DNA of 64,000 nt, from contig JAFATB010000023.1 of NCBI GenBank assembly GCA_019244185.1, positions 448,001 through 512,000 of the forward strand, written 5' to 3'. Origin of the DNA: Acidobacteriota bacterium (lineage in GTDB: Bacteria > Acidobacteriota > Thermoanaerobaculia > Gp7-AA8). Of this stretch, positions 11,420 through 14,054 are shown in pieces (within the stretch, counting starts at the first letter, position 1; every line of letters begins with the position of its first letter). A program made the position numbers and the translations under genes. The notes below the pieces were generated by a model, which was not told where the DNA came from, made no database searches, and was given only the letters and a program-made list of their open reading frames with translations.

Positions 11420-12112
11420 ATGCGACGTTTGATGGTCACGGCACTTCTTCTGATCGCGGTTCGCCTCCACGCCATCGAGTTCGAACGGGTCCTGCTGCCC
11501 ATCACGGTGCTGGACGTGCCGGGCGCGTACGGTTCGTTATGGCGCTCCGAGGCGTGGGCGGACATTCGGGAATCCGGCGTCACGATTCTGCTCGTGCGGC
11601 AGACGCATGCGAATCCGCAGCCTCCCGGCAGTCAGCAACTGTCGATCTTTTTCAACGGACCGGGACAAGAGCCTGGCCAGTTTCTCCAGGTGACGCGCGG
11701 CGCCCAGATCTCGTTCAACCTGCGTATTCGAGATCTCTCGCGTGCTGCCGAGACGTGGGGCACGGAAATCCCCGTCGTGTGGGAACGCGACTTCCGCACG
11801 ACGGTCACGCTGCTCCCCATTCCGGCGAACGACGAGTTTCGCAGCACGGTGCGCATCTATGGCGGCACCGCGGGCGACGTGCGCGTGCGCGTCACGGATC
11901 TCGAGACATCAGCCGTGTTATCGGACGACGTGATCTCGCTGCCGGCGACCATCTCCGAGTACCAGCCGCCCTACGCCGAACTGAATCTCCCCACGAACGC
12001 GAACCTCATGCGCGTCGACGTCGACGCGGTATCGCCCGATCTGCGCTTCTGGGCGTTCGCCTCCGTGACGAACAACGCGACGCAGCACGTGACGACGATC
12101 TCGCCGCAGTGA
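11420..12112 (+). CDS. Secreted hypothetical protein, tandem copy 1 (230 aa)
   Basis: AGGAGG RBS; signal peptide; paralog directly downstream. Confidence 0.85.
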   Translation: MRRLMVTALLLIAVRLHAIEFERVLLPITVLDVPGAYGSLWRSEAWADIRESGVTILLVRQTHANPQPPGSQQLSIFFNGPGQEPGQFLQVTRGAQISFNLRIRDLSRAAETWGTEIPVVWERDFRTTVTLLPIPANDEFRSTVRIYGGTAGDVRVRVTDLETSAVLSDDVISLPATISEYQPPYAELNLPTNANLMRVDVDAVSPDLRFWAFASVTNNATQHVTTISPQ

Positions 12113-12144
12113 GGGCATCGCGCCGCAGAATGAGACAGACGGTT

Positions 12145-12837
12145 ATGCGACGTTTGACGCTTGCAGCACTCATCCTGATCGCCGTTCGCCTCCATGCGTT
12201 CGATGCCGAGCGGGTCTTGCTGCCGATTGCGGTTCAGCAGGTGCCGGGCGCATACGGTTCGCTGTGGACGTCCGACGTCTGGGCCGATATTCGCGCAGCC
12301 GGCGTGTCGATCGTCCCGCTACGCATTACAGACACGAATCCGCAATTTCCCGGCAGTCAGGAACTGCCGGTCGTGCTGTTCGAAGCTGGCCATCCACCAG
12401 GCCTCTTCCTCGAGGTATCGCGCGGCGCGGCCATCACCTTCAATCTGCGTATTCGAGATCTCTCGCGCGCCACCGAAACGTGGGGTACGGAAATCCCGGT
12501 TGTTTGGGAACGTGACTTCCGCACGACGGTCACGCTGCTCCCCATTCCGGCGAGCGACGAATTTCGCAGCACTGTGCGCATCTACGGCGGAACCGCGGGC
12601 GACGTGCGCGTGCGCGTCACGGATATCGAGACCTCCACGGTGTTGTCGGACGACGTGATCTCGCTGCCGGCGACAATCTCGGAGTTCCAGCCGCCCTACG
12701 CCGAACTGAATCTCTCGCCAAACGCGAACCTCATGCGCGTCGACGTCGACGCGGTGTCGCCCGATCTGCGCTTCTGGGCGTTCGCCTCCGTGACGAACAA
12801 CGCGACGCAGCACGTCACGACGATCTCGCCGCAGTGA
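12145..12837 (+). CDS. Secreted hypothetical protein, tandem copy 2 (230 aa)
   Basis: ATG 12145; colinear without indels with 11420-12112. Confidence 0.85.
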   Translation: MRRLTLAALILIAVRLHAFDAERVLLPIAVQQVPGAYGSLWTSDVWADIRAAGVSIVPLRITDTNPQFPGSQELPVVLFEAGHPPGLFLEVSRGAAITFNLRIRDLSRATETWGTEIPVVWERDFRTTVTLLPIPASDEFRSTVRIYGGTAGDVRVRVTDIETSTVLSDDVISLPATISEFQPPYAELNLSPNANLMRVDVDAVSPDLRFWAFASVTNNATQHVTTISPQ

Positions 12838-12890
12838 CGTCGCTGGCGTCGACTCTCGTGCTACGATCCGCTCCCTTCAGGAGGTGCAAC

Positions 12891-13136
12891 ATGCGCAAGC
12901 ACACTGATTACGAGAACCTCGCTTCCTTTTGAGCGGTCGAGCAAACGGAGGAAGGGGATATCCATCCGAAACGAACGTGCGGCGAGGGCCGCGCGTCGTG
13001 CACGGCGACAAGGTTCTGCTCGAGAAGCTTGGACGCAACGATCCCTGCCCCTGCGGCTCCGCACGCCGGTTTCAAACACTGCTGCATGAAGACCGGCGAC
13101 TTCGACGGGCAGCGGCGCGATCACTATGAACGGTAG
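12891..13136 (+). CDS. SEC-C zinc-motif small protein (80 aa) requiring three +1 frame transitions (programmed frameshifting or pseudogene)
   Basis: AGGAGG RBS + ATG 12891; segments 12891-12929, 12931-12957, 12959-13072, 13074-13136 join to give ...KRRKGYPSET...[21 protein letters not shown]...; the SEC-C motif is complete only after the last shift. Confidence 0.75.
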
Positions 13137-13143
13137 CCACCGC

Positions 13144-13170
13144 GGCCGCGGGCGAAACACGCCCGCGGCC
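13144..13170 (+). terminator. GC-rich hairpin after the SEC-C gene (no U-tract)
   Basis: ggccgcgggcg-aaaca-cgcccgcggcc, 11-bp stem, 7 nt after TAG 13136. Confidence 0.55.
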
Positions 13171-13199
13171 CGCGACGCGTGCGATACACTTCGCGGCCG

Positions 13200-14054
13200 A
13201 TGATCCGGCAGATTTCCGTTCTCGGCACCGGCACGATGGGGCGCGGCATCGCGTATCTCGCGGTCGTCGCGGGCTACGACGCGGTGCTCTTCGACGTCGA
13301 CTCCGCGGCGCTCGACGCGGCGAAAGCGTCCATCGAGTCGCTGCTCCGCAAGGCCGTGGAGAAGGGGAAGCTGAAGGATGGAGACGCCGCCGACGCGGGG
13401 GCGCGCCTGCAGCTCGTCCCCGAGCTCGAGCCGGCGGTGAGCGGCGCGGATCTCATCATCGAGGCGGTGCCGGAGATCGCGGAACTGAAGATCGATCTCT
13501 TCGCGCAGGCCGATCTCTTCTGCGGCGTCGACACGATCCTCGCGTCGAACACGTCGTCGATCTCGATCACGCAACTGGCCTCGAACGTCGAGCGTCGCGA
13601 CCGCTTCGTCGGGATGCACTTCTTCAATCCGCCGCACGTGATGAAGCTGATCGAGATCGTACGCGGCGAGCGCACCAGCGACGCGACGGTCGATCAGGTG
13701 CGCGCGGTCGCGGAGAAGATGGGCAAGACGCCGATCGTCGTGCGCGACAGTCCCGGCTTCGCCACCTCACGCCTCGGCGTGGCCATCGGACTCGAGGCGA
13801 TTCGCATGCTCGAAGAAGGCGTCGCCGAGGCCGAAGACATCGACCGCGCCATGGAGCTCGGCTACAACCATCCGATGGGACCGCTGCGTCTCACCGATCT
13901 CGTCGGCCTCGACGTGCGCCTCGGCATCGCGGAGTATCTCGCCGCGACCCTCGGCCCGCGCTTCGACCCGCCGCAACTCCTCCGCGACAAAGTCGCGGAG
14001 GGGAAGCTGGGGAAGAAGACGGGCGAGGGCTTCTATCGCTGGCCGAGCGACTGA
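13200..14054 (+). CDS. 3-hydroxyacyl(butyryl)-CoA dehydrogenase
   Basis: GTGTMGRGIA, IIEAVPE, LASNTSS, GMHFFNP, HPMGPL, GKLGKKTGEGFY. Confidence 0.95.
   Translation: MIRQISVLGTGTMGRGIAYLAVVAGYDAVLFDVDSAALDAAKASIESLLRKAVEKGKLKDGDAADAGARLQLVPELEPAVSGADLIIEAVPEIAELKIDLFAQADLFCGVDTILASNTSSISITQLASNVERRDRFVGMHFFNPPHVMKLIEIVRGERTSDATVDQVRAVAEKMGKTPIVVRDSPGFATSRLGVAIGLEAIRMLEEGVAEAEDIDRAMELGYNHPMGPLRLTDLVGLDVRLGIAEYLAATLGPRFDPPQLLRDKVAEGKLGKKTGEGFYRWPSD

Follow-up and report, generated by a model that had tools for sequence, protein, structure and literature searches.

The gene described here lies on the + strand of a 64,000-nt stretch of contig JAFATB010000023.1 from an Acidobacteriota bacterium (hereafter the window, to which all positions refer; its genome is labelled G000). 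It encodes a small protein with a SecA-type SEC-C zinc knuckle, and its coding sequence is broken by changes of frame: read from its ATG through three successive +1 steps, which lead back to the ATG frame, it specifies 80 residues in total. The same kind of interrupted gene recurs as a family across many phyla. The locus is laid out as follows.

12879-12884, + strand: Shine-Dalgarno (SD) sequence AGGAGG, 6 nt ahead of the ATG at 12891
12891-12929, + strand: segment 1, the leader, 13 codons (M...ASF) in the start frame
12927-12932, + strand: site 1, UUU_U +1 shift site with the zero-frame stop UGA (TTT 12927-12929, TGA 12930-12932)
12931-12957, + strand: segment 2, nine codons (E-R-S-S-K-R-R-K-G) in the +1 frame, fitting the family consensus FE.(S/T)SKRRKG
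12947-12951, + strand: SD-like GGAGG, 3 nt 5' of the site 2 shift codon GGG
12955-12960, + strand: site 2, GGG_A +1 shift site (GGG 12955-12957) ahead of the rare codon AUA
12959-13072, + strand: segment 3, 38 codons from YPSET in the next +1 frame, with the first two SEC-C cysteines
13070-13075, + strand: site 3, UUU_C +1 shift site within the SEC-C motif, zero-frame codon CAA (TTT 13070-13072)
13074-13136, + strand: segment 4, K-H-C-C...D-H-Y-E-R and stop (codons 13074-13133, TAG 13134-13136), with the last two cysteines and the conserved tail
13141-13174, + strand: GC-rich hairpin 3' of the stop codon (-34.9 kcal/mol, z -2.74), lacking a U tail

This layout, with a hairpin after the stop, had been proposed in a sequence-only reading of the window, and every coordinate given there was confirmed when the sequence was read again. 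A terminator scan of the + strand called none and did not score the hairpin as a terminator; Rfam searches of 12600-13400 at E up to 10 and of the whole window at the gathering threshold returned nothing relevant.

The sites fall in T3-T4 and G4 runs, where sequencing or assembly error is an obvious suspicion, but this explanation is already refuted and keeps virtually no probability, as contigs from three other metagenomes have no indel there and identical breaks are found in 10 congeneric species as well as in isolates from other phyla. Across 12786-13300 not one letter is inserted or deleted in contigs of X2, X3 and X4, which come from three different studies: a single Logan contig of X2 spans the interval with zero differences, two of X3 show zero differences from 12786 on, and a diverged strain in X4 carries substitutions only inside the gene. 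This evidence consists of assembled contigs, not raw reads, and X1, a possible source sample, was excluded.

A DNA search of 40 relatives returned seven orthologous loci at 72-78% nucleotide identity, and a hidden Markov model of the middle segment placed the gene in 11/35 genomes of the genus, one copy each. Frames were assigned from six-frame translation and nucleotide alignment, with eight orthologues aligned, that of the window included, and three more added later; one of the ten genus orthologues (G002) is an unpublished genome, and all statements stand without it. Site 1 is TTT TGA after a leader of 10-13 codons and site 3 is TTT CAA after G-S-x-R-R-F, both in 11/11 genomes. The extra base of site 2, on the other hand, is restricted to the window and the congener G016 and is missing in the other nine. 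Both read CGG AGG AAR GGG A TAT around the site, the six other aligned orthologues read (GCCGG/GAAAG/GCCGC) AAR GGN TAT, and among the eight aligned sequences only the window and G016 have GGAGG-AAG-GGG, the SD-like element at prfB spacing. The sequence-only reading was right about the position of this site and its prfB-like geometry, and the extra base is shared by a second genome, but it is a feature of two genomes and not of the family.

Over the nine codons between sites 1 and 2 the window and G016 differ by two synonymous changes only (TCG/AGC for Ser, AAG/AAA for Lys). Replacing sites 1 and 2 by one -1 shift, or by initiation at the TTG of 12929, was rejected: the consensus SSKRRKG is encoded in the frame between the sites, where the two genomes differ only synonymously, and the alternative frame does not encode it.

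Beyond the genus, a scan of species-representative genomes gave at least 600 pattern matches and at least 589 confirmed stretches. The census below covers 86 loci, namely 8 from the genus and the 78 parseable ones among the best 80 of the at least 589 confirmed stretches; these loci are phylogenetically related and their counts are not independent events. By record titles, the best 80 represent at least 13 phyla: Acidobacteriota, Pseudomonadota, Gemmatimonadota, Chloroflexota, Bacillota, Planctomycetota, Verrucomicrobiota, Armatimonadota, Eremiobacterota, Methylomirabilota, Deinococcota, Sumerlaeota and Entotheonella. Carriers include the isolates Chthoniobacter flavus Ellin428, Caulobacter sp. 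CCUG 60055, Microvirga sp. 2TAF3 and Acidobacteriaceae KBS 96. The family is widespread and very conserved, yet sparse and patchy, present in 9/401 good genomes of a phylum sample (14 candidates scored per genome). A phage origin was set aside, despite viral SEC-C clusters in the protein atlas, since a collection of 2.9 million viral contigs held 2 loci only.

A leader start with an SD-like motif was recognized in 85/86 loci (ATG in 72, GTG in 12, TTG in 1) and none was found in the remaining one; the leader has a median length of 12 codons and ends in Phe. A shift is needed at site 1 in 83/86 loci (TTT_TGA in 45, TTT_CGA in 23, other TTT_Y in 15), the site being in frame in L020, L061 and L086. 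After it the +1 frame reads F-E-x-(S/T)-S-K-R-R-K-G and continues directly into segment 3 in 84/86 loci; the other two are the window and G016, where the site 2 shift is needed. Segment 3 is 114 nt long and free of indels in 86/86. Site 3 requires a shift in 85/86 (TTT_CAA 75, TTT_TAA 4, TTT_TAG 2, TTT_CAG 2, TTT_CCG 1, TTT_GAA 1) and is in frame in one, L043.

Two further sites came to light downstream. At site 4, between G-x-F and D-G, a shift is needed in 12/84 loci, mostly at TTT_CGA or TTT_TGA. At site 5, the last Phe, 64/83 loci need one (TTT before TAG in 40, before CCG in 16, CAG in 6 and CAA in 1; CTT_TAG in 1), and reading in the +1 frame there invariably yields R, RE, RD or RK ahead of a stop that comes within 1-4 codons; the zero frame runs on for 0 to >50 unconserved codons. 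Where site 5 is in frame (19/83), the zero frame itself ends in R/RD/RE-stop; the window belongs here, its gene closing with Y-E-R-stop. Of the three sites first proposed, sites 1 and 3 proved to be family-wide, and what had been overlooked is this further site of most relatives, which is in frame in the window.

About 240 of the 246 called breaks (L078 was read by eye) are TTT followed by T or C; GGG_A in the window and G016 is an exception. A single rule, by which an in-frame TTT followed by T or C is read as Phe and one base is skipped, yields the full-length protein with all motifs in 70/86 loci, and most failures trace to the strict search pattern or to variant spacing or residues at sites that are still TTT_Y. 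In L043 (Acidobacteriaceae bacterium KBS 96) a +1 step is needed about 7 codons past site 3, at CGC_C/CGG_G with no obvious re-pairing, and the last site is CTT_TAG, a shift codon of the prfB type.

Among the 83 fully called loci the number of shifts is three in 70, two in 11 and four in 2. When site 4 is shifted, site 5 is in frame in 9/12 loci, and otherwise in 10/71; similarly, the lineage of the window and G016 acquired site 2, its site 5 being in frame, so that it still needs three shifts. These counts, which carry no phylogenetic correction, suggest that the number of shifts per gene is itself under selection. The recurrence expected of a genuine frameshift gene is found, with the same breaks in 10/10 genus orthologues and across phyla.

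The reading that selection sees is the 80-residue three-shift path. Ratios of nonsynonymous to synonymous differences (pN/pS) were calculated over all locus pairs, with pS saturated, and the values are upper bounds. In the middle segment pN/pS is 0.175 in the decoded frame vs 1.8 and 2.1 in the others (n=86). In the tail the +1 frame gives 0.317, the zero frame 1.00 and the third frame 1.34 (n=67), and in the leader pN/pS is 0.43 in the ATG frame vs 2.24 in the frame of the middle segment and 0.86 in the remaining one (n=10 genus orthologues). Leader, middle and tail all look like coding sequence in the frames that had been assigned to them from the letters alone. In addition, TTT before a pyrimidine is absent from in-frame Phe codons of the middle segment (0/38, vs 16.5 expected from flanking open reading frames, ORFs), although the loci are related and a P value for this avoidance would be overstated.

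The zinc knuckle tells the same story, since its ligands C-x-C-x8-C-(C/H) are complete only through the +1 frame at 13073 (CPCGSARRF + KHCC). As claimed earlier, no other path completes the SEC-C motif: past site 3 the zero frame misses the last two ligands. Pfam PF02810 (SEC-C, gathering 20.4) scores 26.5 bits over model positions 1-14 of 19 on the unshifted middle ORF of the window, and 37.9 bits over positions 1-18 of 19 on the decoded L003 orthologue (P0121); ORF 13029-13136 taken alone matches no Pfam family.

Natural in-frame versions of the protein also exist. Besides the in-frame leaders of L020, L061 and L086, all 47 database proteins in alignment A2 read through site 3 in frame; P0125, P0130 and P0134 likewise match the decoded product, and P0123 (Desulfatibacillum alkenivorans) is 79% identical over 89% to the decoded L003 product. 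Several of these proteins still stop at ...YF or ...G(R/C)F, which are the places of sites 5 and 4. Such matches rule out both sequence error and a family that is uniformly a single ORF.

One could still take the locus for a decaying pseudogene, or hold that only a partial product functions (leader peptide or middle ORF) and that the downstream frames are relics, a position for which the patchy distribution and the annotation of nothing but the middle ORF by gene callers may be cited. We consider this highly improbable in view of the purifying selection in the leader, the tail and the frames after site 5, the absence of indels from the middle segment in every locus, and breaks that are identical across phyla. 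Moreover, in 7/8 middle frames of the genus the stretch from the preceding stop to FE.SSKRRKG contains neither ATG nor GTG nor TTG. Separate initiation of the middle or tail ORFs was rejected, as no start codon is conserved.

The decoded product, some 75-85 residues long, starts with a short acidic leader, followed by a very basic middle, the SEC-C knuckle (C-x-C-x8-C-C) and a tail ...DG..R..Y(F)R. It shares the ...(F/Y)K.CC knuckle with the C-terminal zinc domain of SecA and with the SEC-C proteins YchJ and YecA, but outside these ~22 residues nothing is related. By sequence, the PDB offers the YchJ C-terminal peptide 9l6b_C (E 1.9e-7) together with the SecA peptides 1sx0 and 1ozb, over residues 40-63 only, and the NCBIfam models of the YchJ/YecA type (UPF0225/UPF0149) reach 29-34 bits (best 34.1) against cut-offs of 140-158, aligning the motif only. 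An AlphaFold2 model built from 47 natural in-frame homologues is of low confidence (predicted local distance difference test 58.7, predicted template modelling score 0.35). The protein probably binds RNA.

A search with the middle segment returned 2089 database proteins of 31-102 residues, the best 120 being 76-94% identical and drawn from many phyla. More than 2000 of the database entries are mis-called, with spurious upstream extensions, zero-frame tails, or ends at ...G(R/C)F / ...YF, and 25/25 fetched proteins end in the zero frame just past ...GS.(R)F-Q. Entries carry names such as YecA, YchJ or SEC-C domain protein, and some 'nucleic acid-binding protein'. Fused or longer forms (126 matches) were discarded: in essence they were spurious extensions at the upstream end, the Pfam domains in them were scattered and unrelated, and no fusion recurred.

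The full protein is probably made by programmed +1 ribosomal frameshifting at several sites, as far as comparative sequence data can tell. In this mechanism tRNA-Phe (GAA) would leave UUU in the ribosomal P site and re-pair with an overlapping UUU or UUC, decoding would continue in the +1 frame, and unshifted ribosomes would terminate at once or within a few codons. The shifts in the window would take place at UUU_UGA (site 1), at UUU_CAA (site 3) and at the lineage-specific GGG_AUA (site 2), with its GGAGG as in prfB; output, as the product of three efficiencies, would be either very low or steeply tied to the +1 slippage rate of the cell. All three sites of the window allow P-site re-pairing (UUU_U, UUU_C, GGG_A). 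We attribute the shift, by inference, to the ribosome, and neither to editing of the RNA nor to a special tRNA.

The sequence-only reading had further held that slow decoding of AUA, through its dependence on lysidine, and of CAA, through U34 modification, drives the shifts. Both codons are indeed uncommon in the genome, where 1745 long ORFs, a crude set, have ATA at 1.2% of Ile codons and CAA at 12.8% of Gln codons, but the idea is not supported by the comparison between species, in which the zero-frame codon varies and the constant feature is UUU + pyrimidine. At site 3 this codon is CAA, UAA, UAG, CAG, CCG or GAA, and at site 1 it is UGA, CGA, CAA, UAC or others; these identities follow from the residues that the +1 frame must encode. 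AUA and CAA may still help locally. As for the A site, at site 1 it is occupied by the stop UGA in 45/83 loci and by sense codons (CGA, others) in 38/83, and at site 3 a stop is found in 6/85.

Several observations weigh against frameshifting as the source of the protein. RNAalifold on 60 ungapped loci gave no consensus structure, and the SD-like element at prfB spacing accompanies site 2 only, being absent at sites 1 and 3 of the window. The efficiency of UUU_Y shifting in E. coli is a few percent, and at a few percent per site three shifts in series would be completed by about 1 in 10^4-10^5 ribosomes. UUU_C is not avoided genome-wide: in the crude ORF set TTT accounts for 27% of the Phe codons that precede C, so UUU_C is not intrinsically very shifty in this organism. 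Real exceptions to the rule exist as well: TTT_G in L025, and L043 and L067, which lie outside it. Unless a stimulator has escaped notice, output must be very low.

The hexamers upstream of site 3 showed no consistent motif across the family. Before A, G or T the share of TTT among Phe codons is 2-11%, as against the 27% before C, a context bias that wrong-frame ORFs may have produced artificially.

The frame could also be restored by a four-base-decoding tRNA, by removal of the extra base from the RNA or by transcriptional slippage. The near-perfect rule that UUU + pyrimidine means Phe is what a UUUY-reading tRNA would produce, and some relatives adjoin tRNA or tRNA-like arrays, including a tRNA-Phe (L054). 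Yet ARAGORN lists 55 tRNAs in the window genome with a single, ordinary tRNA-Phe (GAA) and none that is odd; most loci have no tRNA nearby, T runs of 3-4 bases are too short for known transcriptional slippage, and GGG_A and CUU_U, which depart from the rule, belong to the classical ribosomal +1 sites. This leaves such mechanisms very unlikely.

For ribosomal frameshifting, the nearest precedent is prfB, which in the window genome has its own classical +1 site (GGAGC-TAT-CTT-TGA-C; G000:C17, L104:2490-2580, minus strand). Both systems would involve a +1 slip of the P-site tRNA to an overlapping cognate codon, beside a zero-frame UGA at site 1 and with an SD-like element 3 nt upstream at site 2 only, and in both a failed shift leaves a short peptide. 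They differ in that prfB has one site and the present gene about three, in the shift codon (CUU vs UUU), in the dispensability of a stop here (CGA, CAA or CCG in other species) and in the lack of an SD at sites 1, 3 and 5; furthermore, the product is no release factor, and autoregulation of the release factor 2 (RF2) type is not implied. To our knowledge, programmed +1 frameshifting in bacterial chromosomes concerns very few genes, prfB foremost, with one site each.

Support for the tetranucleotide itself comes from the parts of a 2016 review on recoding available to us (PMC5009743), which describe UUU_Ynn as especially prone to +1 shifting in bacteria, UUU_Y as the likely site of YopN-TyeA, UCC_UUU_CGU as the site used by influenza and UUU_U as present in some, a minority, of prfB genes. 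YopN-TyeA of Yersinia and PA-X of influenza A have in common with our gene the same UUU_Y, and many family members read TCC TTT CGA or TCC TTT TGA at site 1, almost the UCC_UUU_CGU of PA-X. Those two are single low-efficiency events that add an alternative product, whereas here no complete product arises without the shifts, and several stand in series. More than one +1 shift within a coding sequence is reported for Euplotes and some mitochondria in the same parts of the review, which name no bacterial case of multi-frameshift genes (PMC5009743); there, shifting is a genome-wide decoding peculiarity, and here it concerns one gene family in bacterial genomes that decode normally. Our searches of the literature on frameshifting, SEC-C, UUUY sites and Rsr/RtcB/Y RNA, with supplements outside their scope, found no description of this family.

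Clues to a role come from the neighbourhood in a minority of the loci. A Ro60/Rsr gene (TROVE + vWA_Ro60) adjoins the family gene in 7/86, RtcB lies 3' of it in L081, L072 and L017 (cut by the contig end), and Rsr and/or RtcB together account for 8/86. Between Rsr and the family gene stand two to five YrlA-like Y RNAs (RF02553; E 1e-13 to 1e-6 for most copies), which at 29-67 bits are below the gathering score of 69. In these 8 loci the arrangement resembles Rsr-YrlA-RtcB operons, with the gene on the same strand, right after the YrlA-like RNAs and Rsr and/or before RtcB; most loci differ in lacking these partners, the window included, whose genome yielded no TROVE (Rsr) gene and which itself gave no Rfam match. 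The literature searched does not describe the family gene as a member of Rsr/RtcB operons, and the parts of Chen et al. 2014 available to us (PMC4201824) make no mention of SEC-C, SecA or zinc. Blast clustering of flanking ORFs revealed no universal neighbour, the top clusters being ORFs that overlap the gene itself; of the clusters obtained, those of Rsr and RtcB alone carried meaning.

An operon-like arrangement is seen at L081:123-5123 (also L017, L038 and L053), where Rsr, YrlA-like RNAs, the SEC-C frameshift gene, an unassigned 205-amino-acid ORF and RtcB follow one another on one strand; as many as five Y RNAs in tandem would seem unusual. Acido-Lenti-1 RNA (RF01687, gathering 37) occurs just downstream of the gene at L053:3397-3441 (39.1 bits) and L038:3564-3609 (36.3 bits), with weaker copies on the opposite strand. 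Next to the gene and Rsr there are arrays of 3-9 tRNA or tRNA-like genes at L020:991-2183, L054:62-1841 and L061:5124-6143, all loci of the subfamily with in-frame leaders. In L054 ARAGORN calls Asp, Pro, Asn, Phe(gaa), Arg(gcg), Thr, His and a suppressor-like 'Stop(tta)' tRNA.

In the window itself, two tandem paralogous genes of ~230 amino acids (11420-12112 and about 12140-12837) lie directly upstream, with signal-peptide-like N-termini and near-identical C-terminal halves; Pfam assigned them no family, just a sub-threshold 'tify' match. Downstream, on the same strand, a 3-hydroxyacyl-CoA dehydrogenase gene (13200-14054; 3HCDH_N E 7e-63, 3HCDH E 6e-31) has no bearing on the finding.

The Rtc operon is reported, in the parts of the source available to us, to respond to damaged tRNAs (PMC7790460), and the Rsr/YrlA/RtcB neighbourhood is circumstantial evidence that fits a link between +1 slippage and RNA repair or translation damage. 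It is also the one line of support for the earlier suggestion that the gene might act as a translation-stress sensor or AND gate. Synthesis of an RNA-repair-associated protein would then be coupled to trouble in the translation apparatus. Going further, and only tentatively, for we think it more likely wrong than right, one may picture a pan-bacterial frameshift-counting gene: a basic, conserved zinc-knuckle partner of Rsr-Y RNA-RtcB, made only by a triple +1 slip of tRNA-Phe within about 80 codons, whose output would follow roughly the cube of the slippage rate. Its level would report tRNA damage, hypomodification of tRNA-Phe or other loss of frame maintenance, and the gain of site 2 or site 4 would go with the loss of site 5, selection holding the number of gates near three.

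Another view needs no sensing at all. The extra bases could be tolerated 'savior' indels, with UUU_Y slippage at the level of error giving a constitutive trace of a protein for which a low dose is enough or preferred. No stimulatory structure and no zero-frame codon is conserved, and the family is patchy and dispensable (11/35 in the genus, 9/401 in the phylum sample), all of which this view accommodates; translational 'correction' of problem indels is, moreover, a known use of frameshifting according to the parts of the review cited above (PMC5009743). It fits poorly with the retention of the same sites across phyla, although one-base deletions would restore the frame, with the repeated origin of new sites (sites 2 and 4, L043), and with the trade-off between sites 4 and 5 and the mode of three shifts (70/83). 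We rate tolerated indels as rather unlikely.

Read as a programmed multi-shift gene, the locus has a practical and a biological bearing. Thousands of entries of the family in databases are truncated or wrongly extended and should be treated with caution in annotation. One gene family of about 80 codons, spread over many phyla, appears to need two to four shifts, usually three, with a minimal UUU_Y signal and no obvious stimulator. If the shifts are efficient, some new way of stimulating +1 slippage exists; if they are inefficient, the family would represent a natural way of converting a rare error of decoding into a steep, multiplicative gate on expression. Either way, it would offer a natural reporter for the maintenance of reading frame, through tRNA-Phe modification, RF2 or tRNA damage, and the family gene becomes a new candidate component of Ro60/Y-RNA/RtcB RNA repair.

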